64,000 nucleotides of DNA, taken from positions 1 through 64,000 of the forward strand of contig QPMI01000575.1 in the NCBI GenBank assembly GCA_004431415.1, read 5' to 3'. The translations under genes and the position numbers were made by a program. This document shows, piece after piece, positions 3,421 through 30,400 of the stretch. Every line of letters starts with the position of its first letter. The stretch's first letter is position 1. The stretch comes from Cyanophora paradoxa CCMP329. Lineage: Eukaryota > Plantae > Glaucophyta. A model generated the notes under the pieces. The model did not search any database, was not told where the DNA came from, and was given only the letters and a program-made list of their open reading frames with translations.

Positions 3421-3442
3421 GAATATTGGTTATATATAGAGT

Positions 3443-3686: not shown

Positions 3687-3735
3687 GGGATATTTGCATT
3701 AGGTTTGACTAGTTAATTTTTCTAAGGTATTCTTA

Positions 3736-5202: not shown

Positions 5203-8200
5203 AGAGCTATCCGGTCCGCAGAAGCATTCTGAAGTAGACAACGCCGCAGACCTGCAGAGCCCGCCGTGCTATTCGTGGCCGGAAATTAAAGTCGATGCTG
5301 GAGATTGAGCTCCTCGTATTATGGGCGCTGATCAATAGCGCCAGTTTCGAAAATCGGCCTGCAGCTAGCATCGTTCGAAAAGAGCTATCCGCAGAAGAAT
5401 CAAGATGGAGACTGGGCCGCGGACCTGCAGAGCCCGCGGCTGCTTTGCAATTTGTGGTCGGAAGGTTGATATCGATGTTGGAGATTGAGCTCCTCGTATC
5501 ATTAGTGCTCTTATCAATAGCGCCAGTTTCGAAATCGGCCTGCAGCTAGCATCGTTCAAAAAGAGCTATCCGCAGAAGCATTAAGATGGAGACTGGGCCG
5601 CGGACCTGCAGAGCCCGCCGTGCTATTTGTGGCCGGAAAGTCGATGTTGGAGATTGATCTCCTCGTATTATGGGCGCTGATCAATAGCGCCAGTTTCGAA
5701 AATCGGCCTGCAGCTAGCAGCTAGCATCGCTCGAAAAGAGCTATCCGCAGAAGCATTAAGATGGAGACTGGGCCGCGGACCTGCAGAGCCCGCCGTGCTT
5801 TTTGTGGCCGGAAAGTCGATGCTGGAGATTGAGCTCCTCGTATCATGGGCACACTTATCAATAGCGGCAGTTTCGAAAATCGGCCTGCAGCTAGCATCGC
5901 TCGAAAAGAGCTATCCGCAGAAGCATTAAGATGGAGACTGGGCCGCGGAACTGCAGAGCCCGCTGTGCTATTTGTGGCCGGAAAGTCGATGCTGGAGATT
6001 GAGCTCCTCGTATCATTAGTGCGCTTATCAATAGCGCCAGTATCGAAAATCGGCCTGCAGCTAGCATCGCTCGAAAAGAGCTATCCGCAGAAGCATTAAG
6101 ATGGAGACTGGGCCGCGGACCTGCAGAGCCCGCCGTGCTATTTGTGCCGGAAAGTCGATGTTGGAGATTGAGCTCCTCGTATCATTAGTGCGCTTATCAA
6201 TAGCGCCAGTTTCGAAAATCGGCCTGCAGCTAGCATCGTTCGAAAGAGCTATCCGCAGAAGCATTAAGATGGAGACTGGGCCGCGGACCTGCAGAGCCCG
6301 CCGTGCTATTTGTGGCCGGAAAATCGATGTTGGAGATTGAGCTCCTCGTATCATTAGTGCGCTTATCAATAGCGCCAGTTTCGAAAATCGGCCTGCAGCT
6401 AGCATCGTTCGAAAAGAGCTATCCGCAGAAGCATTAAGATGGAGACTGGGCCGCGGACCTGCAGAGCCCGCCGTGCTTTTTGTGGCCGGAAAGTCGATGC
6501 TGGAGATTGAGCTCCTCGTATCATGGGCACACTTATCAATAGCGGCAGTTTCGAAAATCGGCCTGCAGCTAGCATCGTTCGAAAAGAGCTATCCGCAGAA
6601 GCATTAAGATGGAGACTGGGCCGCGGACCTGCAGAGCCCGCTGCCGCTTTGCAATTCGTGGTCGGAACGTGGATATCGATGTTGGAGATTGAGCTCCTCA
6701 TATCATTAGTGCGCTTATCAATAGCGCCAGTTTCGAAATCGGCCTGCAGCTAGCATCGTTCGAAAAGAGCTATCCGCAGAAGCATTAAGATGGAGACTGG
6801 GCCGCGGACCTGCAGAGCCAGCCGTGCTATTTGTGGCCTGAAAGTCGATGCTGGAGATTGAGCTCCTCGTATCATGGGCACACTTATCAATAGCGGCAGT
6901 TTCGAAAATCGGCCTGCAGCTAGCATCGTTCGAAAAGAGCTATCCGCAGAAGCATTAAGATGGAGACTGGGCCGCGGACCTGCAGAGCCCGCCGTGCGTT
7001 TTGTGGCCGGAAAGTCGATGTTGGAGATTGAGCTCCTCATATCATTAGTGCGCTTATCAATAGCGCCAGTTTCGAAAATCGGCCTGCAGCTAGCATCGTT
7101 CGAAAAGAGCTATCCGCAGAAGCATTAAGATGGAGACTGGGCCGCGGACCTGCAGAGCCCGCCGTGCTTTTTGTGGCCGGAAAGTCGATGCTGGAGATTG
7201 AGCTCCTCGTATCATTAGTGCGCTTATCAATAGCGCCAGTTTCGAAAATCGGCCTGCAGCTAGCATCGCTCGAAAAGAGCTATCCGCAGAAGCATTAAGA
7301 TGGAGACTGGGCCGCGGACCTGCAGAGCCCGCCGTGCTTTTTGTGGCCGGAAAGTCGATGCTGGAGATTGAGCTCCTCGTATCATGGGCACACTTATCAA
7401 TAGCGGCAGTTTCGAAAATCGGCCTGCAGCTAGCATCGTTCGAAAAGCGCTATCCGCAGAAGCATTAAGATGGAGACTGGGCCGCGGACCTGCAGAGCCA
7501 GCCGTGCTATTTGTGGCCTGAAAGTCGATGCTGGAGATTGAGCTCCTCGTATTATGGGCGCTGATCAATAGCGGCAGTTTCGAAACTCGGCCTGCAGGTA
7601 GCATCGCTCGAAAAGAGCTATCCGCAGAAGCATTAAGATGGAGACTGGCCGCGGACCTGCAGAGCCCGCCGTGCTATTTGTGGCCGGAAAGTCGATGTTG
7701 GAGATTGAGCCCTCGTATCATTAGTGCGCTTATCAATAGCGCCAGTTTCGAAAATCGGCCTGCAGCTAGCATCGTTCGAAAAGAGCTATCCGCAGAAGCA
7801 TTAAGATGGAGACTGGGCCGCGGACCTGCAGAGCCCGCCGTGCTATTTGTGGCCGGAAAGTCGATGCTGGAGATTGAGCTCCTCGTATCATGCATATGGG
7901 CACACTTATCAATAGCGGCAGTTTCGAAAATCGGCCTGCAGCTAGCATCGTTCGAAAAGAGCTATCCGCAGAAGGATTAAGATGGAGACTGGGCCGCGGA
8001 CCTGCAGAGCCCGCCGTGCTATTTGTGACCGGAAAGTCGATGCTGGAGATTGAGCTCCTCGGATCATTAGTGCGCTTATCAATAGCGCCAGTTTCGAAAA
8101 TCGGCCTGCAGCTAGCATCGTTCGAAAAGAGCTATCCGCAGAAGCATTAAGATGGAGACTGGGCCGCGGACCTGCAGAGCCCGCCGTGCTTTTTGTGGCC

Positions 8201-11200
8201 GGAAAGTCGATGCTGGAGATTGAGCTCCTCGTATCATGGGCACACTTATCAATAGCGGCAGTTACGAAAATCGGCCTGCAGCTAGCATCGTTCGAAAAGA
8301 GCTATCCGCAGAAGCATTAAGATGGAGACTGGGCCGCGGAACTGCAGAGCCGCTGCCGCTTTGCAATTCGTGGTCGGAACGTGGATATCGATGTTGGAGA
8401 TTGAGCTCCTCGTATCATTAGTGCGCTTATCAATAGCGCCAGTTTCGAAAATCGGCCTGCAGCTAGCATCGCTCGAAAAGAGCTATCCGCAGAAGCATTA
8501 AGATGGAGACTGGGCCGCGGACCTGCAGAGCCCGCCGTGCTTTTTGTGGCCGGAAAGTCGATGCTGGAGATTGAGCTCCTCGGATCATGGGTACACTTAT
8601 CAATAGCGCCAGTTTCGAAAATCGGCCTGCAGCTAGCATCGTTCGAAAAGAGCTATCCGCAGAAGCATTAAGATGGAGACTGGGCCGCGGACCTGCAGAG
8701 CCCGCCGTGCTATTTGTGACTGGAAAATCGATGTTGGAGATTGATCTCCTCGTATTATGGGCGCTTATCAATAGCGGCAGTTTCGAAAATCGGCCTGCAG
8801 CTAGCATCGTTCGAAAAGAGCTATCCGCAGAAGCATTAAGATGGAGACTGGGCCGCGGACCTGCAGAGCCCGCCGTGCTATTTGTGACCGGAAAGTCGAT
8901 GCTGGAGATTGAGCTCCTCGGATCATTAGTGCGCTTATCAATAGCGCCAGTTTCGAAAATCGGCCTGCAGCTAGCATCGTTCGAAAGAGCTATCCGCAGA
9001 AGCATTAAAATGGAGACTGGGCGCGGACCTGCAGAGCCCGCCGTGCGTTTTGTGGCCGGAAAGTCGATGTTGTAGATTGAGCTCTTCGTATCATTAGTGC
9101 TCTTATCAATAGCGCCAGTTTCGAAAATCGGCCTGCAGCTAGCATCGTTCGAAAAGAGCTATCCGCAGAAGCATTAAGATGGAGACTGGGCCGCGGACCT
9201 GCAGAGCCCGCCGTGCTTTTTGTGGCCGGAAAGTCGATGCTGGAGATTGAGCTCCTCGTATCATGGGCACACTTATCAATAGCGGCAGTTTCGAAAATCG
9301 GCCTGCAGCTAGCATCGTTCGAAAAGAGCTATCCGCAGAAGCATTAAGATGGAGACTGGGCCGCGGAACTGCAGAGCCCGCTGCCGCTTTGCAATTCGTG
9401 GTCGGAACGTGGATATCGATGTTGGAGATTGAGCTCCTCGTATCATTAAATATTAGTGCGCTTACCAATAGCGCCAGTTTCGAAAATCGGCCTGCAGCTA
9501 GCATCGTTCGAAAAGAGCTATCCGCAGAAGCATTAAGATGGAGACTGGGCCGCGGACCTGCAGAGCCCGCCGTGCTATTTGTGACCGGAAAGTCGATGCT
9601 GGAGATTGAGCTCCTCGGATCATTAGTGCGCTTATCAATAGCGCCAGTTTCGAAAATCGGCCTGCAGCTAGCATCGTTCGAAAAGAGCTATCCGCAGAAG
9701 CATTAAGATGGAGACTGGGCCGCGGACCTGCAGAGCCCGCCGTGCTTTTTGTGGCCGGAAAGTCGATGCTGGAGATTGAGCTCCTCGTATCATGGGCACA
9801 CTTATCAATAGCGGCAGTTTCGAAAATCGGCCTGCAGCTAGCATCGTTCGAAAAGAGCTATCCGCAGAAGCATTAAGATGGAGACTGGGCCGCGGAACTG
9901 CAGATCCCGCTGCCGCTTTGCAATTCGTGGTCGGAACGTGGATATCGATGTTGGAGATTGAGCTCCTCGTATCATTAGTGCGCTTATCAATAGCGCCAGT
10001 TTCGAAAATCGGCCTGCAGCTAGCATCGTTCGAAAAGAGCTATCCGCAGAAGCATTAAGATGGAGACTGGGCCGCGGACCTGCAGAGCCCGCCGTGCTAT
10101 TTGTGGCCGGAACGTTGATATCGATGTTGGAGATTGAGCTCCTCGTATCATTAGTGCTCTTATCAATAGCGCCAGTTTCGAAAATCGGCCTGCAGCTAGC
10201 ATCGCTCGAAAAGAGCTATCCGCAGAAGCATTAAGATGGAGACTGGGCCGCGGACCTGCAGAGCCCGCCGTGCTATTTGTGACCGGAAAGTCGATGCTGG
10301 AGATTGAGCTCCTCGGATCATTAGTGCGCTTATCAATAGCGCCAGTTTCGAAAATCGGCCTGCAGCTAGCATCGTTCGAAAAGAGCTATCCGCAGAAGCA
10401 TTAAGATGGAGACTGGGCCGCGGACCTGCAGAGCCCGCCGTGCTATTTGTGGCCGGAAAGTCGATGCTGGAGATTGAGCTCCTCGTATCATGGGCACACT
10501 TATCAATAGCGGCAGTTTCGAAAATCGGCCTGCAGCTAGCATCGTTCGAAAAGAGCTATCCGCAGAAGCATTAAGATGGAGACTGGGCCGCGGAACTGCA
10601 GATCCCGCTGCCGCTTTGCAATTCGTGGTCGGAACGTGGATATCGATGTTGGAGATTGAGCTCCTCGTATCATTCAATGATTAGTGCGCTTATCAATAGC
10701 GCCAGTTTCGAAAATCGGCCTGCAGCTAGCATCGTTCGAAAAGAGCTATCCGCAGAAGCATTAAGATGGAGACTGGGCCGCGGACCTGCAGAGCCCGCCG
10801 TGCTATTTGTGGCCGGAACGTTGATATCGATGTTGGAGATTGAGCTCCTCGTATCATTAGTGCGCTTATCAATAGCGCCAGTTTCGAAAATCGGCCTGCA
10901 GCTAGCATCGCTCGAAAAGAGCTATCCGCAGAAGCATTAAGATGGAGACTGGGCCGCGGACCTGCAGAGCCCGCCGTGCTATTTGTGACCGGAAAGTCGA
11001 TGCTGGAGATTGAGCTCCTCGGATCATTAGTGCGCTTATCAATAGCGCCAGTCTCGAAAATCGGCCTGCAGCTAGCATCGTTCGAAAAGAGCTATCCGCA
11101 GAAGCATTAAGATGGAGACTGGGCCGCGGACCTGCAGAGCCCGCCGTGCTTTTTGTGGCCGGAAAGTCGATGCTGGAGATTGAGCTCCTCGTATCATGGG

Positions 11201-11375
11201 CACACTTATCAATAGCGGCAGTTTCGAAAATCGGCCTGCAGCTAGCATCGCTCGAAAAGAGCTATCCGCAGAAGCATTAAGATGGAGACTGGGCCGCGGA
11301 CCTGCAGATCTTGAGCCCGCCGTGCTTTTTGTGGCCGGAAAGTCGATGCTGGAGATTGAGCTCCTTGTATTATGG
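5203..11375. repeat. Tandem satellite, 170-bp monomer (~35 copies) with longer variant monomers
   Basis: CGAAAAGAGC-type anchor recurs at 6761, 6931, 7101, 7271 and 7441 (period 170); edges are degenerate. Confidence 0.95.
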
Positions 11376-15069: not shown

Positions 15070-16485
15070 TATATTACCGTAGTACCGTGTACGGTGTTAT
15101 CATAGTATATTACTTCCAGACTAAAATAATACCAGTTACCAAGTTACGGTTACCGTATACCGTATACGTAGTTCACGTGCCGAGTCGTGCGAATACACGC
15201 AGAAAGCACATGATATTACAGAATAGCCTAGTAGAGGTAGGCAAGCCTGTATTTGATGAATTTGTTTGGCCCGCGACCGTCGGACATGCGCTAGCCTAGT
15301 AGAAATGAGAAGCTAGTTTACGTCAAGCTTAATTATAAGAGGCCGCCTCTCCCCCCCTCGGCTCGAGCCCTGGCTGGCCGGCTCGACCTAGCTCGCCCCT
15401 GGCTCGAGCCAGCCGCTGAGCCCTCCCCTCCGAGGCTCTCCGAATATTTCCGATGTGACACGTGCACTGTACATGTGACAGCCTACCGCAGCCGAGGTCC
15501 GCAAGTAAGTTAATGAGGCTGTGGCCGGATTCACCAACAAAAAAACGTTTAATGCGACGTCGACATGAAGAAATTAATTACATAATGCGGTTATATATAT
15601 TAATTAGCTCGACCCGGACGGTGGCCGGACCCCGGCCGCGAAATGGCCCTAATTGTGACATTGCAATTGATGCGGCACAAAATTATATAAAAAATGCGTT
15701 TTGAAGCTTTTCGCATAGCGTATACCGTATACCGTATACGTACGTAGGTAGTAGACTACTAGTACTAGTAGTTCGGAAGCTGCAGCTGGGCCCTCGGGGG
15801 GTACAAACAGTAGTTTATGAGCGTTTTGAAAGCAATATTTTAATTAAGTATTATACTATGATACAAAATTAAGCTACTGGGCTATCGATCGCGACGATAT
15901 CTAGATCTGGGCTTGCGAAGACGTGAGTCACGTCACGATATCTCAGAGTCTGGGCTTGCGAAGTCACGTACGCGTGGCGTCGTCAATTGCAAGCGCCGCG
16001 CCGCGGCACGGCGCGGCGCCGCGGCGGGCCGGCGGCCCGGCGGCGTTCTAGCATGGAATGTGGAGACTTGCAATCGAGCTCGATTCCACGAACAGTCACC
16101 AAGGCGATGAACTCAAAATTTTGACGCGGTTGCAAAAAATTGCCTATGTAACCGCGCGTCACTGCGGCGTCAGGACTCAGGAGTCAGGACCCCATGGCCA
16201 GGGGCCCAATTGCAACGACCGAAGCGACCAAGTGCCAAAAAAATGATCATCGGATGTCATGGGCCTCATCATCGGCCCTCATGGCCCCTTCGGTCGTTAA
16301 CAAGTGTCAATTTCAATTTCAATTTGTCCATTCATGCATCGCGTTAATTCGCTACCGATTCATGCATCGCATTTATATATTTTACCGGTCTCGCGACCGA
16401 TACTGGAAGTCGGGTAATATTTAAGACGCCTTCGAATCCCGCCCGGCCCGTTTCAGAATCTCATTCGATCATGCCCTACGTATAC

Positions 16486-16960
16486 TGTGCCGTCACGTCT
16501 CGCACGTCTAGGGGAGAGACGTAGACCCACACCGCGTACAACAGTGTACGGACCTGCGATGCACTCGACTGTAGGCCAGCCCGAGTCCCAGGCAGCCCGT
16601 AGCTATGAGATTGCAAGCCGCAGTGCTAGTATTAATTACAGCTGCTACGTAAGCCCAAGTTACTTAGTTAACGCTGTACCAAGCTCGATTAATTGGTAAT
16701 CACAAGTCTGCCCGAGTCCACTAGACTCTGACTATTTACGGGGCTAAGCCACCGCGTGCCACGTCGGCTCAGGCCCTGGCCACGTCGGCTCGGGCCCTTC
16801 AGCGCCACGTCGGCTCGGGCCCTTGAGCGCCGCCGTGCACGTGTCGGGCCGGGGGCCCCTCCGGGACCGGGTACGCCGCGCCCGGCGGCCGGCACCCCCT
16901 CGAGGCCCGCGGCGGGTACGCCCCCACGTTGATCGCGAACTCGCGATCGCGCCCGCGACA
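16486..16960 (-). repeat. 3' LTR
   Basis: TGTGCCGTCA...CCCGCGACA, apparently identical to 50865-51339. Confidence 0.93.
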
Positions 16961-17430
16961 TTCGCCGCAGCACAAGAAAGCCGTCCTCGGCGTCCATCCC
17001 GCGACGTTCGCCGCAGCAAATCGAAAGTCCCCGAATATTTACATATCCACAATTCAGAAGGGTGAGCTGCCGAACAACGACATCGACCGGCTCCGTCCCT
17101 TCGCAACTCGCAGTTGACGTCGGCCCCGCAGCCGCCGCTGCCCCTCGACGTCTTGCGAGTCTGGCCCCTCCGGCCTGCGGCTGGATCTGTAGACGGCGAG
17201 AAAAGAGGGAGTCCTGTGCTGCAGAACGCGGACGCCGCCGCGACGAGCACTTCCAAAATTTCCGCTCTTGTTCTCAAATCCGCCTGACGAGATTCTCCGC
17301 CCATTTTCGACCCCAGAATAAAATTAGCGGCCGGACGCACAGCTAAATTGACGGTTGCTGTGGGTCCGCCGGCGGTAGGTGCACTTGCACATCGAGTCCG
17401 AAGACCGAGAATGTCCGCCGAGGTTGCTCA

Positions 17431-17713
17431 ACACATAGTAAAATGCGGAGTTTTAACCCTCGGCTTATCTTAATTGATTTTGTTGATATATCTCGTATAT
17501 TCTATTTCAATCAATCGATAATCTGTGTATATCTTATCGAATAGTCATTTATTTCGATTATTTTGTATTCTTTTCGATATTTTATCGTAAATTTCTCTTA
17601 TTTTCCGATTAGTCTTACTGAGTCTATCGATAATCTGTATATATTTCCGAATATTATAACTGAATCTCAATTAGATCTTGCCTCTGGTTAAAACTCCGCA
17701 TTTTACTATGTGT
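17431..17713. repeat. Terminal fold-back: 28-bp perfect IR (17431-17458 / 17686-17713) around an AT-rich, partly self-complementary interior; mirrored at 47620-47902
   Basis: ACACATAGTAAAATGCGGAGTTTTAACC and its reverse complement GGTTAAAACTCCGCATTTTACTATGTGT. Confidence 0.92.
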
Positions 17714-18425
17714 GATTGGTCTGTTTGTTAATTGATTTAATCGATATTATATTCATGTACTTTCTCGATTAAATTTAATTAAATTTAATTCATTTAATCG
17801 GAAATATATCGCTAAACTCGATTAAGATCCATAAATGATTCATTTGTTAAATAAAACAAATCGATCTCTTATTGAATCCAATCGTAATTATACATGAAAC
17901 TTATATGTTTTTATCATGTTTTAATGATTCTAAGGGGGGACCCTTAGGATTTTTGAAATAATTGGGTGTGACACATACCATATTCAGTAAGGACCTCTTA
18001 TATTGTGAAAATCTCAGTGTTAGTTGTGTAGTTGATTCAAAAAATGCATTTTATACTCTGATTCATTGTTATTTCCTGTGAAATTTGAGTCAACTCAACC
18101 CACTTAGTCAACCCTTGTATTGAATTCGTAACAAAATCCATATACTATTACTACTTTTACGATTAATATGAGTCAACCTTGAGTCCACTTTAATAATAGG
18201 GGGAATCTTGGGGAGATGTCATTGTAGAAAGCTATTGTAGTAAAATGATATATTATGTCCTTTTGTTACAATAGCTGATCAATGTTATTGTTAGAAAACA
18301 AAGGAATCCTTTCACTGGGATTTTGTTTTTTACGGTTATAAAATTGTATCTGTGGTGCATTTTGTCGAATTGCTTGTATTAAACTGTTTTGCTCTTCTAT
18401 GTATTCGATCGTACTTTTATGTGAA

Positions 18426-18733
18426 GGTTACATTAATGTTTAAAAAGTTACATGGAGTTACGTGATGGGTTACGTAGATATTTTACGATTACTAAGACCA
18501 TTCTCAGTGTTAAAATGGTTGATTTATCGCTATTTTGTCACTGTGAGTTACGGTTACGCAACTTTTTGAATTCTTTCTGAAAATTTGGCTGGGGGTCTTT
18601 TTATAGGTGAAGGTCTAAAACTTGCGTAACCACGTAACTTGCGTAACCTCTACGACATTATGGTGTCATTTCTCTATACTTTTAGGTTACGTAACGTTTT
18701 TACTTACGTAACTTGTGTAACCTTAACGTAACC
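18426..18733. repeat. GTTAC/GTAAC intergenic cassette R1 (copies 26985-27291, 46603-46909)
   Basis: Conserved core GTTACGGTTACGCAACTTTTT...CTTGCGTAACCNCGTAACTTGCGTAACC...GGTTACGTAACG...GTGTAACCTTAACGTAACC. Confidence 0.9.
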
Positions 18734-18810
18734 TTGTTATTCTTACATTTAATCACTGTTATACTATGATATCATGATAACTAAAAATGATACATGATAA
18801 TTGCTTATCT

Positions 18811-19272
18811 TTAACCACGTAGAGATGTTAGATGATCACAATCGAACATCTTAAAGATCTTGCATATCTCATTTTCAGGATCGGTGACATACCATAGACG
18901 GTGTCGCTTATCAAATAAAGCGCCTTGGTTTTTAATGTATTTACGTAATGATGCCTGGGTAAATATACGTTTAGCTTCTATTTCAGGTAGTTTAGTTTTT
19001 ATGTCACCAACGAAATATAGACGTTTCGGGCGATTATGATAATCAGGATCGATAACGATGGGGTTTATTGTAGGAAAGTGCTTTAAGATTCTGTGAAACT
19101 TGTAGCAAACAAACCAATACCCTGTGTCATCATCGAATTTAACGCCACAATCTTTGATATCTAATAGTGATCTGAAACAAGTATTACGGAGGTTGCTTAT
19201 ATCCAACATGTAAGCGCCGTAGTAATGGTGCGGCTCGTTTGTGGTGTTTCCGAAATAAATGAATTGATCCAT
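18811..19272 (-). CDS. 153-aa protein with two DUF5710-like motifs, copy 1
   Basis: IKDCGVKFDDDTGYWFV and IKNQGALFDKRHRLWYV resemble the K..GA.(W/F)D...K.WY motif; AAAATTGA 26 bp upstream. Confidence 0.65.
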   Translation of the reverse strand: MDQFIYFGNTTNEPHHYYGAYMLDISNLRNTCFRSLLDIKDCGVKFDDDTGYWFVCYKFHRILKHFPTINPIVIDPDYHNRPKRLYFVGDIKTKLPEIEAKRIFTQASLRKYIKNQGALFDKRHRLWYVTDPENEICKIFKMFDCDHLTSLRG

Positions 19273-19353
19273 TTGTAATCAGATGTTAAAAAGATTGTCA
19301 ATTTTTCATAAATCCTTCTCTGTAAAGTTTTGGTTAAACAATTGGAAAACTGC

Positions 19354-19672
19354 GGTTACACAACAGTTACACGGCGGTTACACTTGGTTACGCGGGGTTA
19401 CAGGTGAGGTTACGTAGTGATTTTTCGATAAACCACACCATTTTCAGTGTGGTAATCGATAAAAATAACCATTTAGATCCATTGAGGTTACGGTTACGCA
19501 ACTTTTTGAATTCTTTTTAAAAAAATGGCTGGGGGTCTTTTTATAGGTGAAGGTCTAAAACTTGCGTAACCGCGTAACTTGCGTAACCTCACGAGATTTA
19601 TGGTGTCTTTTTGGTATTTTTAAGGTTACGTAACGTTTTTACTTACGTAACCTGTGTAACCTTAACGTAACC
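19354..19672. repeat. GTTAC/GTAAC cassette R2 (copies 27912-28229, 45667-45983)
   Basis: Same core; GTTAC at 19355, 19366, 19377, 19387, 19397 and 19409. Confidence 0.9.
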
Positions 19673-19809
19673 TTATTATAACATCTTAAAAATGTCATCT
19701 GTTATCAAACGGTAGCGGGTGCGATACATAAGATCATGTCACGAGAAGCGATAGGATCCGCTTGTGAAGCGATGAAAAAATGAAGCAAATCTTAAAACTT
19801 AAACAATAA

Positions 19810-20310
19810 GTGAGATACAGCGGAATGTACAATATGAACGCGTCGGATATCCTGACCTACATTAAGAGTATTACCCATATTCCTGTTCTCATCGATGCTG
19901 ACCTATCTTTAAAGAAGGCAAACCCTAACACTATCTGTATTGTGCCGTATGATACTAAACATCGTGCGTATTTCGAAATGTTTCGTAAAAACTTGGGTTA
20001 TTCACCTAATACCCGTTTCGTCTGCTTTCTCACATTAGAGACTCACTATATTCTTGTTCCGGTTCTTACTGAAACATCGTGTAAATCGTTTATCTCTAAG
20101 ATCATCTCTAAATGGTCTATTAACCTACCTGCGCAATCTAATGAAACTAAGGAGTGCGTCATATGCCTTGATGACTGTAAAACTAAAATACAAATGTCTT
20201 GTTTGACATGTTTCGCCAAAATGTGCAACACATGCTTTTTACAGTTGAAGAGATCAGAGAGCTTTAAATGTCCGATCTGTCGTAATGACATAAAGACGCA
20301 ACGTGATTAA
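19810..20310 (+). CDS. RING-finger protein A, copy 1 (ATG start probably 19825 or 19834)
   Basis: CVIC-x11-CLTC-x4-CNTC-x11-CPICR, an all-Cys RING-like pattern. Confidence 0.8.
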   Translation: MRYSGMYNMNASDILTYIKSITHIPVLIDADLSLKKANPNTICIVPYDTKHRAYFEMFRKNLGYSPNTRFVCFLTLETHYILVPVLTETSCKSFISKIISKWSINLPAQSNETKECVICLDDCKTKIQMSCLTCFAKMCNTCFLQLKRSESFKCPICRNDIKTQRD

Positions 20311-20359
20311 TGTAAAAATTGATGGAAGATAAAAGTTTTTCTGAGTGTGCCGCTCTGAC

Positions 20360-20563
20360 ATGAAAGAGAAAATGAATAATGGACATTGGGTAACTTTGGC
20401 GACATTGCATAATAAGAAGATTGAGCTTATCCATCGGGAGGTTGATCTTAAACACACAAAAAGACAAGACCATGAAAGACTACAAAATGTTAAACAGTAT
20501 ATTGATGCAATCGATGTAATGATAGATGTAGTGAATACGATCGCTAAAATTAAGACCATGTGA
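20360..20563 (+). CDS. Small helical hypothetical protein, copy 1
   Basis: Short ORF with AAAATTGA at 20315-20322 upstream. Confidence 0.45.
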   Translation: MKEKMNNGHWVTLATLHNKKIELIHREVDLKHTKRQDHERLQNVKQYIDAIDVMIDVVNTIAKIKTM

Positions 20564-20593
20564 ATTTCATCGATAGCGCAAGCGCTATTTTTA

Positions 20594-20893
20594 TTACTTC
20601 TGTGTGCGGTTTTCAAGCTTCTGCCTCAATCTGAATGTTATAATGCTACCATCATGTCGTGCCTTCCCCCTTTGAATCGCTTTCGATATTTCCCCGGGTG
20701 TGTTCTCATCGAAATCAATGAATCGGGAAACCTTCTTTATAAACTGTCTCTGTAAATATCCGGGTAGTTGGTTGATATTACACCCGTCGTTTTTCTTAAC
20801 AAGGTTCTCGTAAATAATGCTACTGCGGTCATCCTGTGATAAATCGGGATTTTGAAGCTGTTCTATGAAAGCGTCGGGAATCCGTGAAGTCAT
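20594..20893 (-). CDS. 99-aa hypothetical protein, copy 1
   Basis: ATG-initiated ORF, AAAAATGA 32 bp upstream. Confidence 0.6.
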   Translation of the reverse strand: MTSRIPDAFIEQLQNPDLSQDDRSSIIYENLVKKNDGCNINQLPGYLQRQFIKKVSRFIDFDENTPGEISKAIQRGKARHDGSIITFRLRQKLENRTQK

Positions 20894-20938
20894 TGTAGGT
20901 TACACTGTCTATTTTGGCGGGTTGTCATTTTTTGCATC

Positions 20939-21247
20939 GGTTACATAGAGGTTACAAGAAGTTACAGAGGAGTTACGCAACAGGTTACGTAGATATTTTA
21001 CAACTGCAAGACGACTTTCAGTGTTATAATACAGGAGATTTAGTATTTTTAACACTGGCGGTTACGGTTACGCAACTTTTTAAATTCTTTTTAAAAAATG
21101 GCGGGGGGGTCTCTCTCAGATAAAATAGTGAAAACTTGCGTAACCGCGTAACTTGCGTAACCTCTACGACATTATGGTGTCTTTTCTCTGTTATTTTTGG
21201 TTACGTAACGTTTTTATCTACGTAACTTGTGTAACCTTAACGTAACC
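20939..21247. repeat. GTTAC/GTAAC cassette R3 (copies 29496-29804, 44097-44402)
   Basis: Same core; GTTAC at 20940, 20951, 20961, 20972 and 20984. Confidence 0.9.
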
Positions 21248-21273
21248 TTATTATTTAACATTATTCATCTTTA

Positions 21274-21810
21274 TTATCCATTTGCATATAACTTAGGTTC
21301 TAATGCTTCCATTCCGTCAAAAAATAGTTTAGTTCTACAAACTGAACACTTAGCATTCTCATGTGATTCAAGTGAAGAGAGGAAACAATTAGGACAAATA
21401 AGAGTATTGCAAACGATACAGCCTTTATTATTTATGTTAGTGTCAATGTTTTCAAGACAGATAGGACATGTTTCATTCGGACTCTCAAAGTTTTCCCTCG
21501 CGAATGACTTAATAATGATATCTACGAACCATTTGGTGTTCTCCTCATCAAGATATGGGACTAACATGTAACGGTGTTTATATGAGAATGCAAAACGAAT
21601 AGGTTGAAGGGCATGATATCCCGCCTTTTGCTTCCATGCATCAAATACCCCTTTATTCTTGCGGTTCTTTTGAATAAAGTATATAATCTGTCTTTCGTTG
21701 GCTTTCATTAAGAATTTCGTATAATTCTTATCATTCAGTTTATCTGATGCATTGACTATGGGATATGGCGAAATAGACTGTGAAAACGTCAATATATCGT
21801 TTAAATTCAT
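21274..21810 (-). CDS. RING-finger protein B, copy 1 (paralogue of A)
   Basis: CPIC...CIVC...CPNC...CSVCR; N-terminus MNLNDILTFSQSI resembles MNASDILTYIKSI. Confidence 0.8.
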   Translation of the reverse strand: MNLNDILTFSQSISPYPIVNASDKLNDKNYTKFLMKANERQIIYFIQKNRKNKGVFDAWKQKAGYHALQPIRFAFSYKHRYMLVPYLDEENTKWFVDIIIKSFARENFESPNETCPICLENIDTNINNKGCIVCNTLICPNCFLSSLESHENAKCSVCRTKLFFDGMEALEPKLYANG

Positions 21811-21844
21811 TTGGTTGTGCTACTATCTGTTACAGTTTCTTTAA

Positions 21845-22222
21845 TTAGCTTAGAGTTTTTTCAATGTCGAACACTCTTTTGAGAACGCCATCAATTCTTA
21901 CAGCATGTGATTTAATCCCGAAAATGCGCTTAATCACGATTCCGATGGCTGTTTTTGAAATCGGAAAGTCTATAAGCTCTTCTATTTCAGCATGGATTAC
22001 ATCGGAAGGTGTATAATCACCGTCATTACTTAACCTGTAACTATGCATTAAATACGCTTCCACATCAGACATCCCATGTTGATATTCGCCAATCCCATGT
22101 TGATATTCGCCAATCCCATGTTGATATTTGTCCATCCCATGTTGATATTTGCCCATCTCATGTTGATATTCGCCCATTTCCGTTTCATCCATAACAATTT
22201 CGATGTATTCCACGTCTTCCAT
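21845..22222 (-). CDS. 125-aa protein with 7-aa repeats and winged-helix-like C-terminus, copy 1
   Basis: Five 21-bp repeats ((G/D)(E/K)YQH(G/E)(M/I)); C-terminus resembles the C-terminus of the D5 protein. Confidence 0.6.
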   Translation of the reverse strand: MEDVEYIEIVMDETEMGEYQHEMGKYQHGMDKYQHGIGEYQHGIGEYQHGMSDVEAYLMHSYRLSNDGDYTPSDVIHAEIEELIDFPISKTAIGIVIKRIFGIKSHAVRIDGVLKRVFDIEKTLS

Positions 22223-22373
22223 GTTACACTTAACTGTTACATGTTAAAATTTTGTTACAAGTTTTACGGTTGATGTCCAAAAATTGACACTGTAAAACAC
22301 AGAAAGGTATTTAAGGGTTTGACTTAAAAGAGAAGTGAAAGGGAATAATTTCTTACCTTCCATTAGAGAATCA

Positions 22374-22814
22374 ATGGCGAATACTCGGAAATCAAACCAA
22401 GAGCTTATCGCTATTCAGAAAGGCGACCCGTTTGTAGAGATTGGAAAAAAGAAACCTGAGTTATCAATTGAAGAACAGGAAGAAAAGGCAAGGTTGAGAA
22501 GAGAGAAAGACAGGGAAAGAAAACGTGTAGCTTATCAGAAGAAGAAAGAAGAGAGACTCGCAAATGGCGAAAAAACAATACTGACAGCTGAGGAGCTGGA
22601 AAAGAGAGCCATATATTTACGTCGTCGATATGAAGAGGACGCGGAATATAGAAAAAAGAGAATTGAGAGTGCAAACAATTACCTGAAACAGAAAAGGCGT
22701 GAGAAGAAGACGGAGCCAAAACCCAAAGTGCAAACAGTGCCTAAGAAATCGGGAAGACCTCGAAAGTATCCCGACCCGATCACATCTTTATCGGAAAAAA
22801 GCGTAGCGAATTGA
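22374..22814 (+). CDS. Basic K/E/R-rich protein with AT-hook, copy 1
   Basis: KKSGRPRKY; charged helical region; AAAATTGA at 22280-22287. Confidence 0.65.
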   Translation: MANTRKSNQELIAIQKGDPFVEIGKKKPELSIEEQEEKARLRREKDRERKRVAYQKKKEERLANGEKTILTAEELEKRAIYLRRRYEEDAEYRKKRIESANNYLKQKRREKKTEPKPKVQTVPKKSGRPRKYPDPITSLSEKSVAN

Positions 22815-22828
22815 TTGATGGGAGCGCA

Positions 22829-22836
22829 AAAATTGA
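22829..22836 (+). promoter_or_regulatory. AAAATTGA (Mimivirus-type early promoter motif) upstream of primase-helicase; also 22280(+), 20315(+), 19298-19305(-), 36163(+)/37741-37748(-)
   Basis: Exact octamer, correctly oriented 26-233 bp upstream of starts. Confidence 0.6.
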
Positions 22837-22995
22837 CGCTTTACTTTCTCCTTTTTATAACCTAAGCCAAATCATTAAAGTGCCGTGGGCAACCGAAAAG
22901 CATTTAAGGACATCCCGAGAAGATAATTTAAACCTGGGAGTTTCTCACTTCCTCGGATTATTTTCTCTGAGAAATTTAAGAATCAATCGCGAAAA

Positions 22996-25876
22996 ATGAA
23001 TGCTAACACGAAAATCGCAACTCCCTGTGAGAGACTCGGTAACCTGTGCAAATTTACACCTGAGAAACATAATTGGGGTTCTTTCCTACATTGTCTCACT
23101 CCGAATACTGACAGCGAGACTGTCATAGAGTATTTCGACCATCAGATTACGGAAAGGATTAATGATGATTTGAAGAAAGGCAAAAAACCGACCTACGCCG
23201 AATGCATTCAGCCAAACGAAATAACACGTGTCTATCTGGATTATGACGGCTATGTGGATCTTAAACCGGATGTTGCCGATAACTACAAGGAAGCCGATGA
23301 AATCATTCGTGAAATGCGCAAGAGACTACACGAACTCACCGGTGCTACCATTGCTGTGTCCGTGCGTCATCGTCCTATCCATTTCGTTAAGGAAGACGTG
23401 ACCCAATTTAAGGTATCGGGGCATTTCGTCTTTACCGATCTGTGCTGTCGTCATGAAGACATCCCGAAATTCTTAAATGTAATCGGACTTACGCCAAAGG
23501 TGGATTATGACCCACTCGTTTATAAGACAAGGCAGGCGCTTGTTTGTCTGGGTAGTTGCAAGGGTAAATGGTTGGATTCCCAAAACAGACTAAACGCGAT
23601 GTTGATAAGGATGTAGTATTTACCAAATTCGTGGATTGTGAAACCATGTATGACAGCGACTTTTTCGCGCAATTCACGGATTGCCCCACTGTGCTTATCG
23701 ATGAATCAAACATGTATATGTTTGATGCTAACCTAACCCAAGATGAGAAAAACGAACGGTCGGCAAAGGCGGAAGTTGCAAAAGAGCAAATGAAGGAGGA
23801 AGGCAAGACTGAAACCAAGAAGGAGACGACCAAGAAGGAGACGACCAAGAAGGAGACCACAACAAAGAAGAAGGAGACGGCGACGACAAGCAAAAAAACA
23901 ACAAAGAAAACGGAGAGTGAAGAGCAGCCGGAGGAGTCTAATAACGTTTCATTTGAGAAACTGAGAGAAGTCGTGATGGGTCTTAGTGCTGAAAGATCGG
24001 ATACATACGAAGGTTGGCTTAATGTTGGTTTCGCAATCGCGAATGTTGGAGAGGAAAACAATATACCACCCACGAAACAGGAGGCGCTGTTTCACGAATA
24101 CTCCGAGAAAAGCCCTAAGTATGATTATGATGAATGCGCGAACAAATGGATGAGTATCCGCAAAGGCAAAAAATCCGGTTCCGAAAACAAAACTATAACT
24201 TTCGGCTCACTTGTGCATTATCTGAGAGAGGATAACCCGGACACGTATTATGGACTGTTTAAACCAAGCCGACAGTTTGCATTTATCGATGAGGAGGTGT
24301 GTATGGATGAGAATGACTATTCCGATGTTAGCGCCATGAATGATAAGATGGCTCAAATCAAATTAGAAATGGATAAGACGCTATTAAGTCAAGGTCTCCC
24401 ACTTCCTGTTAGCAAGATCTGTAAAGCATTAATTGGCTACAAAGTGCGGTTTTCACGTGGTCTGTGGTTGATCCTGAATGAGAAAACCGGATTTTGGAAG
24501 GTAGATAATAAGTATGATGGTGGTATGATAACTCTTATCGGTGAGGTTGTCGGGAAAGCATACTTAGACCGGGAGAACCATTGGGCTACCAAGGCGGCAA
24601 AGGCGGAGGAACAGAGCGATAAAAAGGAATTCGCAGTAAAGGCAGCCGCCTGTGCAAAAATTGCGCAAAAACTTAACTGTGGAGGTTACACGAAAGGACT
24701 TCTTACATATCTCTCTCATGACCTTTACGATGAGACATTTGCCGATAGGTTGGATTCAGTCGCGAATGTTGTTGGCTTTGACGATGGCGTTTATGATCTT
24801 AACACGTTTGAGTTCCGTAATGGTCGTTCTTCTGATATGATGACTAAGACAGTCTGTTATAACTATGATATTCCGGTGGATCCTGAGAAGGTCAAACGAC
24901 TCAATGACTTCTACATGGATATCACAGGTGACAATGTCGAACTTGCAAGATACATTAAGGCTGTTTATGCCAAGTCTCTAACGGGTAAAAATAACATGCA
25001 GTTTTTCTATATGTTTACGGGTATCGGCTCGAACGGAAAGAGCGTAATCGAAAATTTCATGCATAAGACATTTGGCGACTACTCACGAAATATGAGCATT
25101 GGGATTTTCACGAAGGAGGATAAAGGTAATGGAATGATTCCGGAACTTGCGAATAAGCAAGGTGTTAGGCTCGTCCATACAAACGAACCAAACACGGGTA
25201 GCAAACTGTTGGCGGGACAAATCAAGAATTTCACAGGTTGTGATGAGATCACAGTAAGAACCCTTTTCAAAGAACCAATTTCATTTGCTCCGATGTTTGT
25301 TATCGTCATCCTCTGTAATAATAACCTCGAATTTGATCAGCCCGACAATGCAGTAGCGCGCCGCTTCCGTTCTGTTCCATTTCAGCAGGTCTATGCCGTC
25401 GAACCTAAGCCCGGACAGAAGAAAGCGGATAAAGACCTTACCGGGTTGTTGAATCCCGATAATGACGTAAATGGTGAATGGCGCAGGGCAAACATGGAGA
25501 TTCTCATAGACATGCTTAAAAACCATGATGTTAATCATATAATCGACCATCCGCCCAATGCATCCTCGAACATTCCGCTAATTATCTCGCGGACAGCGAC
25601 CGTATCGGCACATTCCTAAGGGACAACTACGCTTTGGCGGAGGATAACACGAAATACATAATATGTGACGATCTGTTTAAGGATTGCTCAAATACGATGA
25701 GAGATGTTGATAGAAGAGCAGCGATAACAGGACGAGCTGTAAGCAATAAGGTGATGGAGGTGTTTAAGATCGGCTCGACTGTAAAAAAGGTTGGTGGAAA
25801 ATCGAAGCGTGTTTATCTCGGTCTCACAAAGAACCGCGCTAACGATTTTGAAGACGATGACGAAGATGTGGAATAA
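22996..25876 (+). CDS. AEP primase-PriCT-2-D5/SF3 helicase, copy 1 (two 1-bp frameshifts)
   Basis: YLDYDG, KVSGHFVF (AEP motifs); YEGWLNVGFAI..SEKSPKYD..ECANKW (PriCT-2); GFDDGVYDL (D5_N); Walker A GIGSNGKS; AVARRF. Confidence 0.9.
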
Positions 25877-27368
25877 AACTTATTGGAAAATATACTATTG
25901 ATATCTTTTTTATGATCATGAACCGTAAGACTCGGTTCTTAATAGAAGGTTACTTTAAGGTTTCTCGGAGTTACTCGGAGTTACTCAGAGAGGTTACGTA
26001 GCGGTTCCGTTAATTTGTTACCATTTTCAGTATTGATATACCGAATTTCTCTTTATTTCACAGCTGTGAGTTACGGTTACGCAACTTTTTGAATTCTTTC
26101 TGAAAATTTGGAGGGGGTCTTTTATAGGTGAAGGTCTAAAACTTGCGTAACCGCGTAACTTGCGTAACCTCTGCGTAACTTGCGTATCGATAATCTGTAT
26201 ATATTTCCGAATATTATAACTGAATCTCAATTAGATCTTGCCTCTGGTTAAAACTCCGCATTTTACTATGTGTGATTGGTCTGTTTGTTAATTGATTTAA
26301 TCGATATTATATTCATGTACTTTCTCGATTAAATTTAATTAAATTTAATTCATTTAATCGGAAATATATCGCTAAACTCGATTAAGATCCATAAATGATT
26401 CATTTGTTAAATAAAACAAATCGATCTCTTATTGAATCCAATCGTAATTATACATGAAACTTATATGTTTTTATCATGTTTTAATGATTCTAAGGGGGAC
26501 CCTTAGGATTTTTGAAATAATTGGGTGTGACACATACCATATTCAGTAAGGACCTCTTATATTGTGAAAATCTCAGTGTTAGTTGTGTAGTTGATTCAAA
26601 AAATGCATTTTATACTCTGATTCATTGTTATTTCCTGTGAAATTTGAGTCAACTCAACCCACTTAGTCAACCCTTGTATTGAATTCGTAACAAAATCCAT
26701 ATACTATTACTACTTTTACGATTAATATGAGTCAACCTTGAGTCCACTTTAATAATAGGGGGAATCTTGGGGAGATGTCATTGTAGAAAGCTATTGTAGT
26801 AAAATGATATATTATGTCCTTTTGTTACAATAGCTGATCAATGTTATTGTTAGAAAACAAAGGAATCCTTTCACTGGGATTTTGTTTTTTACGGTTATAA
26901 AATTGTATCTGTGGTGCATTTTGTCGAATTGCTTGTATTAAACTGTTTTGCTCTTCTATGTATTCGATCGTACTTTTATGTGAAGGTTACATTAATGTTT
27001 AAAAAGTTACATGGAGTTACGTGATGGGTTACGTAGATATTTTACGATTACTAAGACCATTCTCAGTGTTAAAATGGTTGATTTATCGCTATTTTGTCAC
27101 TGTGAGTTACGGTTACGCAACTTTTTGAATTCTTTCTGAAAATTTGGCTGGGGTCTTTTTATAGGTGAAGGTCTAAAACTTGCGTAACCACGTAACTTGC
27201 GTAACCTCTACGACATTATGGTGTCATTTCTCTATACTTTTAGGTTACGTAACGTTTTTACTTACGTAACTTGTGTAACCTTAACGTAACCTTGTTATTC
27301 TTACATTTAATCACTGTTATACTATGATATCATGATAACTAAAAATGATACATGATAATTGCTTATCT

Positions 27369-27830
27369 TTAACCACGTAGAGATGTTAGATGATCACAAT
27401 CGAACATCTTAAAGATCTTGCATATCTCATTTTCAGGATCGGTGACATACCATAGACGGTGTCGCTTATCAAATAAAGCGCCTTGGTTTTTAATGTATTT
27501 ACGTAATGATGCCTGGGTAAATATACGTTTAGCTTCTATTTCAGGTAGTTTAGTTTTTATGTCACCAACGAAATATAGACGTTTCGGGCGATTATGATAA
27601 TCAGGATCGATAACGATGGGGTTTATTGTAGGAAAGTGCTTTAAGATTCTGTGAAACTTGTAGCAAACAAACCAATACCCTGTGTCATCATCGAATTTAA
27701 CGCCACAATCTTTGATATCTAATAGTGATCTGAAACAAGTATTACGGAGGTTGCTTATATCCAACATGTAAGCGCCGTAGTAATGGTGCGGCTCGTTTGT
27801 GGTGTTTCCGAAATAAATGAATTGATCCAT
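27369..27830 (-). CDS. DUF5710-like protein, copy 2
   Basis: Identical translation to 18811-19272. Confidence 0.65.
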   Translation of the reverse strand: MDQFIYFGNTTNEPHHYYGAYMLDISNLRNTCFRSLLDIKDCGVKFDDDTGYWFVCYKFHRILKHFPTINPIVIDPDYHNRPKRLYFVGDIKTKLPEIEAKRIFTQASLRKYIKNQGALFDKRHRLWYVTDPENEICKIFKMFDCDHLTSLRG

Positions 27831-28366
27831 TTGTAATCAGATGTTAAAAAGATTGTCAATTTTTCATAAATCCTTCTCTGTAAAGTTTTGGTTAAACAAT
27901 TGGAAAACTGCGGTTACACAACAGTTACACGGCGGTTACACTTGGTTACGCGGGGTTACAGGTGAGGTTACGTAGTGATTTTTCGATAAACCACACCATT
28001 TTCAGTGTGGTAATCGATAAAAATAACCATTTAGATCCATTGAGGTTACGGTTACGCAACTTTTTGAATTCTCTTTAAAAAATGGCTGGGGGTCTTTTTA
28101 TAGGTGAAGGTCTAAAACTTGCGTAACCGCGTAACTTGCGTAACCTCACGAGATTTATGGTGTCTTTTTGGTATTTTTAAGGTTACGTAACGTTTTTACT
28201 TACGTAACCTGTGTAACCTTAACGTAACCTTATTATAACATCTTAAAAATGTCATCTGTTATCAAACGGTAGCGGGTGCGATACATAAGATCATGTCACG
28301 AGAAGCGATAGGATCCGCTTGTGAAGCGATGAAAAAATGAAGCAAATCTTAAAACTTAAACAATAA

Positions 28367-28867
28367 GTGAGATACAGCGGAATGTACAATATGAACGCGT
28401 CGGATATCCTGACCTACATTAAGAGTATTACCCATATTCCTGTTCTCATCGATGCTGACCTATCTTTAAAGAAGGCAAACCCTAACACTATCTGTATTGT
28501 GCCGTATGATACTAAACATCGTGCGTATTTCGAAATGTTTCGTAAAAACTTGGGTTATTCACCTAATACCCGTTTCGTCTGCTTTCTCACATTAGAGACT
28601 CACTATATTCTTGTTCCGGTTCTTACTGAAACATCGTGTAAATCGTTTATCTCTAAGATCATCTCTAAATGGTCTATTAACCTACCTGCGCAATCTAATG
28701 AAACTAAGGAGTGCGTCATATGCCTTGATGACTGTAAAACTAAAATACAAATGTCTTGTTTGACATGTTTCGCCAAAATGTGCAACACATGCTTTTTACA
28801 GTTGAAGAGATCAGAGAGCTTTAAATGTCCGATCTGTCGTAATGACATAAAGACGCAACGTGATTAA
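28367..28867 (+). CDS. RING-finger protein A, copy 2
   Basis: Identical translation to 19810-20310. Confidence 0.8.
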   Translation: MRYSGMYNMNASDILTYIKSITHIPVLIDADLSLKKANPNTICIVPYDTKHRAYFEMFRKNLGYSPNTRFVCFLTLETHYILVPVLTETSCKSFISKIISKWSINLPAQSNETKECVICLDDCKTKIQMSCLTCFAKMCNTCFLQLKRSESFKCPICRNDIKTQRD

Positions 28868-29150
28868 TGTAAAAATTGATGGAAGATAAAAGTTTTTCTG
28901 AGTGTGCCGCTCTGACATGAAAGAGAAAATGAATAATGGACATTGGGTAACTTTGGCGACATTGCATAATAAGAAGATTGAGCTTATCCATCGGGAGGTT
29001 GATCTTAAACACACAAAAAGACAAGACCATGAAAGACTACAAAATGTTAAACAGTATATTGATGCAATCGATGTAATGATAGATGTAGTGAATACGATCG
29101 CTAAAATTAAGACCATGTGAATTTCATCGATAGCGCAAGCGCTATTTTTA

Positions 29151-29450
29151 TTACTTCTGTGTGCGGTTTTCAAGCTTCTGCCTCAATCTGAATGTTATAA
29201 TGCTACCATCATGTCGTGCCTTCCCCCTTTGAATCGCTTTCGATATTTCCCCGGGTGTGTTCTCATCGAAATCAATGAATCGGGAAACCTTCTTTATAAA
29301 CTGTCTCTGTAAATATCCGGGTAGTTGGTTGATATTACACCCGTCGTTTTTCTTAACAAGGTTCTCGTAAATAATGCTACTGCGGTCATCCTGTGATAAA
29401 TCGGGATTTTGAAGCTGTTCTATGAAAGCGTCGGGAATCCGTGAAGTCAT
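29151..29450 (-). CDS. 99-aa hypothetical protein, copy 2
   Basis: Identical translation to 20594-20893. Confidence 0.6.
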   Translation of the reverse strand: MTSRIPDAFIEQLQNPDLSQDDRSSIIYENLVKKNDGCNINQLPGYLQRQFIKKVSRFIDFDENTPGEISKAIQRGKARHDGSIITFRLRQKLENRTQK

Positions 29451-30366: not shown

Positions 30367-30400
30367 TTGGTTGTGCTACTATCTGTTACAGTTTCTTTAA

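Follow-up and report, generated by a model that had tools for sequence, protein, structure and literature searches.

Organization of the insert

The stretch of Cyanophora paradoxa CCMP329 DNA analysed here (the window, 64,000 nucleotides) contains an AT-rich block at 17431-47902. Its GC content is about 31-44% in 1-kb windows, next to immediate flanks of 59-63% and other host-like parts of 47-84%. This block, the 30-kb insert, is nearly a giant palindrome. Self-BLAST showed that its right arm, followed from 47904 back to 37556, is an inverted copy of 17429-17624 plus 26185-36355; the arms at 26185-36355 and 47708-37556 match at 99.7%. The left side also contains a tandem duplication in which 17625-26172 matches 26185-34730 at 99.87%, the full units of 8.56 kb being located at 17625-26184 and 26185-34744 (both on the plus strand). 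Without the 8.56-kb duplication the insert amounts to about 21.9 kb and consists of two inverted arms of 10.35 kb and a unique centre of 1.2 kb (36356-37555). The 10.35-kb terminal inverted repeats (TIRs) span 90% of this canonical element.

The two tandem copies differ in 13 alignment columns (3 substitutions and 10 indel columns), and the left and right arms in 3 substitutions and 24 indel columns. Most indels between the copies are single-base changes in homopolymer length and look like long-read errors. Because of these indels the primase-helicase frame is broken at a different homopolymer in each copy.

The hexamer TGCTCA, read directly from the sequence, abuts both tips of the insert (17425-17430 and 47903-47908). 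It represents a target site duplication (TSD) of 6 bp, though with this one insertion a 4- or 2-bp reading is possible as well, because the inverted repeat can be extended by CA/TG.

Gene content

Each arm codes for a D5-like primase-helicase, two RING-finger proteins and several small ORFs without assignment. Copy A of the primase-helicase occupies two frames at 22927-25616 (plus strand) and matched the Pfam families PriCT_2 (3e-14), D5_N (7e-10) and DUF5906 (1e-6). The other copies, with frame breaks at different homopolymers, are located at 31482-34429 (plus strand) and 39474-42420 (minus strand). The unique segment between the arms (36356-37555, minus strand) consists essentially of one homing-endonuclease-like gene, the ORF 36363-37604 on the minus strand, with matches to DUF4379 (8e-17, zinc-ribbon repeats) and DUF5889 (1e-4).

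Between 17431 and 47902 there are 128 stop-to-stop frames of at least 60 aa, each of which was scanned against Pfam with a cut-off of E <= 0.001. Only primase-helicase domains, RING, DUF5710 and endonuclease domains were found across these frames. Integrase, recombinase, transposase, HUH nickase, resolvase, protein-primed PolB (pPolB), capsid, penton and packaging ATPase families were absent from 128 of 128 frames at this threshold, and no protelomerase was found in the element; the longest frames without assignment are shorter than 230 aa, and divergent capsid genes could escape Pfam. The first-pass annotation of this DNA had described an element lacking a protein-primed PolB, and this was confirmed at the Pfam level, with no DNA_pol_B family in any of the 128 frames.

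The best database relatives of the primase-helicase, from a large protein set, share 23-33% identity with it. No close relatives were present in viral contigs; a search of these contigs with a 6-sequence alignment as query resulted in 19 loci, mostly from giant-virus bins, with 23-36% identity. None of the 19 loci had an exact inverted repeat of at least 14 nt in the first or last 600 nt, and none had 20-mers common to both locus ends, most of these locus ends not being genome ends. In one distant homologue (P0001), the Walker A (GxxGxGKS) region of the helicase domain is the exact site of an intein-like insertion, about 200 residues long; the Pfam list of this protein includes PF05203.

An intergenic repeat of about 200-340 bp with 80-93% identity is placed between the genes of the element (18426-18762, 19486-19679, 20939-21274, 26017-26171, 34620-34856 and the mirror copies). 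It is full of GTTACG and GGTTACGTAACC-like motifs and may act as a shared promoter or terminator, or as a protein-binding array. Inside a 125-aa ORF, a 21-nt tandem repeat of 5.1 copies (22070-22177, also 30626-30733 and 43168-43275) encodes G(E/K)YQHG(M/I) heptads.

The terminal fold-back

The outermost 28 nt of the insert (ACACATAGTAAAATGCGGAGTTTTAACC) occur in five copies with 0 mismatches, at 17431(+), 17686(-), 26246(-), 47620(+) and 47875(-); the expectation derived from 100 shuffles is none. The outer copy at the left tip (17431-17458, plus strand) is flush against the TSD, and at the left and right ends alike the outer arm begins at the first base past TGCTCA. As had been noted from the sequence before, the 28-mer recurs inverted at 17686-17713. 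This left inverted pair extends to 47-nt arms with 81% complementarity, composed of the perfect 28 nt and an imperfect extension (17431-17477 on the plus strand and 17667-17713 on the minus strand). The arms enclose an AT-rich apex of 189 nt with (A)TCGA(T) motifs (17478-17666). TCGAT reaches a density of 14.1 per kb in the 283-bp unit, compared to 1.5 per kb in the body of the element.

The first-pass annotation had also described the interior as partly self-complementary (ATCTTAATTGA versus TCAATTAGAT) and the structure as mirrored at the right end. Both observations were reproduced. The two self-complementary stretches lie inside the 47-nt arms, and the right-end fold-back at 47620-47902 (minus strand) differs from the reverse complement of 17431-17713 only by a substitution at 17544; its inner and outer 28-mers are located at 47620-47647 and 47875-47902, respectively. 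The further suggestion that the inner 28-mer creates alternative end pairs which could move as mini-elements gained no support. The unit 17431-17713 has no duplication of its own, since 17425-17430 reads TGCTCA and 17714-17719 reads GATTGG, and no step in contig depth was found at 17713. The pair 17431-26273 is a by-product of the tandem duplication: the third, inner 28-mer at 26246-26273 exists because 17625-26184 was duplicated at 26185-34744. The junction of this duplication (26184/26185), like the start of its first unit, falls within the fold-back apex.

Exact searches with the tip sequence gave 0 matches in viral contigs (20-mer) and 0 matches in metagenome contigs (21-mer). Rfam yielded 0 matches and the tRNA scan 0 genes. 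The abutting arm ends (ATC|GAT) were considered as a mark of an exact palindrome centre and rejected, as any mirrored arms give ATC|GAT by construction.

Folded as single-stranded DNA, the 283 nt reach -44.2 kcal/mol (z = -8.8), a value equalled by 0 of 200 shuffles, and base 1 is paired with base 283 in the minimum-energy as well as the centroid fold. The inner 189 nt (17478-17666) alone reach only -10.4 kcal/mol (z = +0.11), and 104 of 200 shuffles are equal or better. The fold signal of the unit arises entirely from the stem. The unit is a perfect stem of 28 bp (47 nt imperfect) which closes a large unstructured AT-rich loop, and not a mostly paired hairpin. No stable fold exists past the 28/47-nt stem, and the earlier comparison with the AT-rich hairpins of poxviruses and ASFV, which are mostly paired, is therefore not supported: the inner 189 nt fold no better than shuffled sequences. 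The paired terminal base together with the arm flush with the tip is the geometry required for a self-priming 3' end.

A related end in element 2

Positions 1-4588 of the window represent the right part of a second AT-rich virus-like element, element 2, which is cut by the window start. Two of its frames contain C1q domains (2-361 and 901-1404) and one is AdoMet-decarboxylase-like (3830-4084). The element ends in a perfect 27-nt inverted repeat with a 14-nt spacer (4520-4546 and 4561-4587). The resulting terminal hairpin of 68 nt (4520-4587), whose arms are homologous to the 28-mer, folds at -30 kcal/mol (z = -11). Its outer arm ends at 4587, and host-like flanking DNA begins at 4589. In X1, one of the four sequencing runs used below, the flanking repeat is also represented by a contig from a paralogous copy that is unoccupied; this contig begins to match at 4589, after 123 unrelated letters. 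Therefore, element 2 ends at or before 4588 and its hairpin is located at the very tip. That the tip of element 2 is shorter than its inner arm owing to end-processing by an integrase was considered and rejected, being a single example and inconsistent with the 30-kb insert.

In an alignment with the 283-bp unit, the 68-nt hairpin corresponds to both arms, and a single gap of 210 columns falls exactly at the apex; the 189-nt spacer is missing from the hairpin. The apex borders CCTCGGC...GCC are common to both ends, as is the inner junction AATC|ACACATA. Across columns 3-28 of the outer arm, the two elements agree at 18 of 26 positions and differ by 7 substitutions and 1 gap. The arms of each element are nevertheless perfectly complementary to each other, with 28/28 positions in the 30-kb insert and 27/27 in element 2. 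Since each stem is perfectly self-complementary despite the 8 differences, all 8 are present on both arms and thus compensated. The spacer between the perfect arms measures 14 nt in element 2 versus 227 nt in the 30-kb insert. In the simplest reading of this alignment, the 283-bp unit looks like the compact palindrome of the family with about 210 nt extra at the apex.

According to the first-pass annotation, the lack of a stable fold beyond the 28-bp stem and the lack of conservation in related elements would together speak against the fold-back. The former is what we observed beyond the 28/47-nt stem. The latter is not, as the fold-back architecture is kept in element 2 with a perfect 27-nt stem, a 14-nt spacer and eight compensated differences. 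The terminal fold-back is real and conserved, and it is probably functional.

The subterminal 289 bp of element 2 contain TCGAT at 17.3 per kb versus 1.9 per kb in the body. At 18230-18276, close to the inner boundary of the left end module described below, the 30-kb insert has a second, inner palindrome (-9 kcal/mol, z = -4.5), to which a block of element 2 at 4176-4231 is homologous (BLAST, 86% over 57 nt).

End module and contig depth

Logan contigs of four DNA runs from the same organism (X1, X3, X10 and X12) were mapped to 16431-19431 and 3901-5100. One contig per run at 4855-5100, assumed to be single-copy, provided the reference level with depths of 69.7, 51.3, 37.9 and 107.3, respectively. 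Summed contig depth does not equal copy number, and the following figures indicate no more than orders of magnitude. Across the 283-bp unit, the three bins add up to 9,074-68,990, which is about 130-710 times the probable single-copy contig; the body at 18350-19431 reaches 145-1,540, about 3-20 times the probable single-copy level, with the exception of bin 18552-18652 at 1,428-6,981; and the hairpin bins of element 2 reach 7,155-55,055, which is 340-515 times the probable single-copy contig. On the same rough scale, the last 650 bp of element 2 have about 20-500 times the depth of this contig. In the 30-kb insert the high depth, with summed values of 10^4 to 7x10^4 or roughly 100-700 times the probable single-copy level, persists to about 18248. 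With contig depth as a rough measure, there is no step at 17713 and the 283-bp unit is not deeper than the rest of an 882-bp module in three of the four runs. In run X1, depth in the first 100-bp bin exceeds that of the following bins about 3.4-fold.

This high-copy, non-coding end module covers 17431-18312 (882 bp, plus strand), and its mirror at the right end covers 47023-47902 (minus strand; BLAST 1-870 versus 47902-47035, 99.66%). Frames of at least 60 aa are absent from it and from the whole of 17431-18813. Past 18312, single contigs in X1, X3 and X10 carry on with element 2 sequence in reverse complement (about 4120-4141), and past 4143 a contig of X10 runs into the reverse complement of 18289-18312. 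From these mosaic loose ends it follows that the module 17431-18312 is a portable end module carried by at least two different bodies. The loose ends also place an element-2-type body with either end type.

Solo 283-bp units were not seen in the contigs of the four runs, contig depth being a rough measure. The loose ends listed contained no strand-switch joint at the unit that would mark flip/flop forms in any of the four runs, and the letters listed contained no inverted 14-nt loop of element 2 (4547-4560), again in four of four; the contigs are short, which makes both results weak evidence. At 17967-17973, 1-5 contigs break per row among those listed in all four runs. The loose ends at this site (GGTGTGACAGGTC... 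and ...GACCTGTGACACC) look as though a different small transposon, with these sequences as its inverted ends, had inserted into other copies of the module.

Discussion

In kind, the fold-back corresponds to a feature first reported in 2026. The available part of a preprint on Halocafeteria seosinensis (10.64898/2026.07.28.741278) describes four virophage subtypes and one PLV subtype whose TIRs contain palindromes adjoining the TSDs. According to this part, palindromes occur preferentially in elements with non-pPolB replication genes, one example being 52 nt long, and the authors propose a hairpin-priming model that is untested there. As far as the elements are described in it, their palindromes are located at the TIR extremity beside the TSD, which was also found at both ends of the 30-kb insert. 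They are likewise AT-rich and integrated and carry a non-pPolB replication gene; D5 primase-helicase is listed there, and PriCT_2, D5_N and DUF5906 were found here. RING and endonuclease genes belong to the common gene pool. In contrast to the 52-nt example, the ends analysed here comprise a compact form of 68 nt and a form of 283 nt with a 189-nt unpaired apex. Furthermore, the Halocafeteria elements, as presented, carry capsid genes and RVE integrases, neither of which was found in the 128 frames of the 30-kb insert by Pfam. Their host is given as 47% GC, whereas our flanks have 53-84% in 1-kb windows, and the likeness is one of description and not of sequence comparison. New at this locus are the large apex insert, the portable high-copy end module and the capsid-less, near-palindromic primase-helicase element.

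AT-rich PLV insertions with TIRs and 5-6-bp TSDs are described in the accessible text of PMC12220804 and PMC10120064. Like these PLVs and like Maverick/Polinton elements, the insert has TIRs and a 6-bp TSD and is AT-rich relative to its host. Unlike Maverick/Polinton elements, it lacks pPolB, rve integrase, capsid and packaging ATPase, and its TIRs of 10.35 kb make up 90% of the canonical element. The accessible sections of PMC11296320 propose inverted repeats, primase-helicase and recombinase of PLVs as an 'end module' related to the TIR/telomere regions of poxviruses. A giant endogenous virus of Chlamydomonas (bioRxiv 10.1101/2024.09.03.611062) is described with TIRs of 10.8/14.8 kb, 6-bp TSDs, relic copies and no identifiable integrase able to make TSDs. 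It resembles the insert as an integrated viral element with long TIRs, 6-bp TSDs and no recognisable integrase, but it differs in its size of 617 kb, about 60% GC and ACC-GGT termini, and the accessible text mentions no terminal palindrome. The accessible text of a punuivirus preprint of 2026 holds nothing on end structure. Because no capsid module or integrase was found, membership in the virophages or PLVs proper is not established for the insert. It resembles a stripped-down, possibly non-autonomous relative.

Parvoviruses and AAV have ssDNA genomes with terminal palindromes, an HUH nickase, flip/flop isomers and rolling-hairpin replication. They share with the elements of this study a palindrome at each genome end which allows the 3' end to fold back flush and to prime, as base 1 pairs with base 283 here and the stem of element 2 is paired at 27/27 positions. 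Integrated copies also keep the whole palindrome in both cases. Unlike in parvoviruses and AAV, no HUH family was found in 128 of 128 frames, the element is dsDNA of 22-30 kb flanked by a 6-bp TSD, and its ends have a large unpaired apex; flip/flop isomers were not among the loose ends listed here, which derive from short contigs. Telomeres of poxviruses, ASFV and chloroviruses are mostly base-paired loops of about 100 nt at covalently closed ends and involve a viral resolvase. The insert has in common with these viruses that its TIRs are long, its ends AT-rich and its replication protein a primase-helicase of the D5 type, but only 28-47 nt pair in the insert and no resolvase gene was detected. 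Foldback transposons and MITEs are similar in that they are short, non-coding, high-copy units bounded by inverted repeats. In contrast to them, the 283-bp unit lacks a separate TSD, did not exceed the adjoining module in contig depth in three of four runs, and forms the outermost part of a longer end module that is shared.

We tentatively propose that the 283-bp unit is a conserved terminal palindrome which would form a hairpin on an excised linear form of the element, so that the ends could be primed or regenerated without a protein primer. We assign this reading a probability of roughly 45%. The palindrome would be maintained by pairing within one strand at some stage. The compact ancestral end presumably formed a hairpin with almost all of its bases paired; at the end of the 30-kb insert, the apex would now be occupied by about 210 nt of DNA rich in AT and in (A)TCGA(T) motifs. 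If one arm were copied from the other in each replication round, the arms would stay identical, and a spacer varying in length while the arms are kept would be tolerated by intrastrand pairing. The D5-like primase-helicase may drive internal replication. Since the element encodes no integrase, chromosomal insertion might be mediated in trans by the integrase of an autonomous relative sharing the module. The tip-flush palindrome, the covarying stems, the high-copy ends, the lack of pPolB and the Halocafeteria precedent are in favor of hairpin ends. The unstructured 189-nt apex, which would result in a very large open loop unlike the ends of poxviruses and parvoviruses, is a point against them, as is the lack of an HUH nickase, resolvase, protelomerase or integrase in the element. 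The hairpin-capped or hairpin-primed linear stage put forward in the first-pass annotation thus gains plausibility from the lack of pPolB and the conserved fold-back, and loses some from the nickase and resolvase that were looked for and not found, and only weakly from flip/flop forms missing among the listed loose ends of short contigs.

A 6-bp TSD indicates double-strand integration, for which a duplex tip suffices, and two copies of one protein-binding site would also give identical arms. The main rival explanation is that the outer and inner 28-mers are duplex recognition sites only, i.e. inverted binding sites of an integrase or transposase for synapsis which never form a hairpin. The TSD and the exact tip position are typical of DDE/rve-type integration, and a high-copy end module on different bodies is what one would expect if a transposition module acted in cis and was mobilised in trans. 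Like many transposon ends, both subterminal regions contain abundant (A)TCGA(T) repeats, the family thrives despite the unstructured 189-nt spacer, and no flip/flop form was present among the loose ends listed. However, binding sites normally tolerate drift at non-contact positions, yet in both families 27-28 of 27-28 positions are identical between the arms despite the 8 between-family differences. This identity of the arms suggests templated copying of one arm from the other, and a fixed protein architecture would be hard to reconcile with a site spacing that changes from 14 to 227 nt. We regard duplex recognition without a hairpin as less likely than the hairpin reading, though as the competitor to be taken most seriously.

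Palindromes are known to arise readily at DNA ends. The palindrome may once have been produced by snap-back synthesis or by fold-back repair, acting on an end that was broken or single-stranded, and since then would have been inherited as a neutral by-product. We consider this quite improbable, because the palindrome is older than the split of the two end-module types, its arms are perfect through eight changes and it is present at both ends with hundreds-fold depth, whereas a relic should have decayed arms. Accidental annealing after single-strand breaks is named as an alternative in the available part of the Halocafeteria preprint (10.64898/2026.07.28.741278). Even less probable is a separate MITE or foldback mini-transposon which is located at the tips or able to move alone, with the 30-kb element as a composite mobilised by two such units. 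The 28/47-nt inverted repeats bounding the unit are those of the element's own tip, and in one of four runs (X1) the first 100-bp bin stands about 3.4-fold above the next bins. Nevertheless, the hexamers TGCTCA on the left and GATTGG on the right provide no duplication, the 10.35-kb inverted repeat passes straight through the unit, and three of four runs gave neither an excess of the unit over the 882-bp module nor a step at 17713. In addition, the version of element 2 is only 68 nt long with nothing inside. Finally, giant palindromes can be artefacts of read chimeras, and the differences among the three 8.6-10-kb copies are mostly single-base homopolymer changes typical of long-read errors. 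That palindromic chimeric long reads produced the mirrored ends during assembly is nonetheless barely credible, since the two ends adjoin different host DNA with the same hexamer, the 28-mers and the unit are deeply covered by short-read-derived contigs from each of the four independent runs, and element 2 independently has the same architecture.

An extension of our preferred hairpin reading would regard the locus as a chromosomal fossil of hairpin-mediated replication among polintons and virophages. In this scenario, a capsid-less primase-helicase satellite of about 10-11 kb with hairpin ends would have integrated as an unresolved head-to-head dimer with re-templated palindromes, hitch-hiking on a high-copy virus-like family by using its integrase and end module. 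The dimer would explain the 10.35-kb arms, and re-templating of one arm from the other would explain flawless stems in two diverged end types. As a whole, we hold this extended scenario to be rather unlikely.

How linear ends are replicated in PLVs and virophages without a protein-primed polymerase is an open question. A full-text literature search found the hairpin-priming idea only as a model in one preprint of 2026, as far as its available part goes. The covarying stems of the two homologous end types, of which one is compact and the other has a large insert at the apex, are comparative evidence that the palindrome itself is maintained. It belongs to a portable non-coding end module found on different bodies, including a capsid-less and integrase-less primase-helicase element, and the 28-mer, the module and the element supply concrete molecules for tests. 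If hairpin ends were confirmed, they would provide a mechanistic tie to end replication in the style of poxviruses and parvoviruses.

Surrounding DNA

The flanking DNA is eukaryote-like, with a 170-bp satellite, few long ORFs and a Q/G/P-rich frame of 80% GC. The satellite array (5215-11370) comprises 35.6 copies of 170 bp with 90% matches and is located between the two AT-rich elements. Direct repeats of 475 bp with 100% identity (16486-16960 and 50865-51339) bracket the insert and a gag-like zinc-knuckle ORF (48688-50265, minus strand), for which an atlas search matched only zf-CCHC/gag-like clusters. A young LTR-retrotransposon-like unit may have been the insertion site of the virus-like element. 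The open frame of about 80% GC at 57744-62849 (1701 aa) gave no Pfam match; it is rich in Q, G, P and A and contains CAG/GCT-type microsatellites and a tandem duplication of 237 bp.
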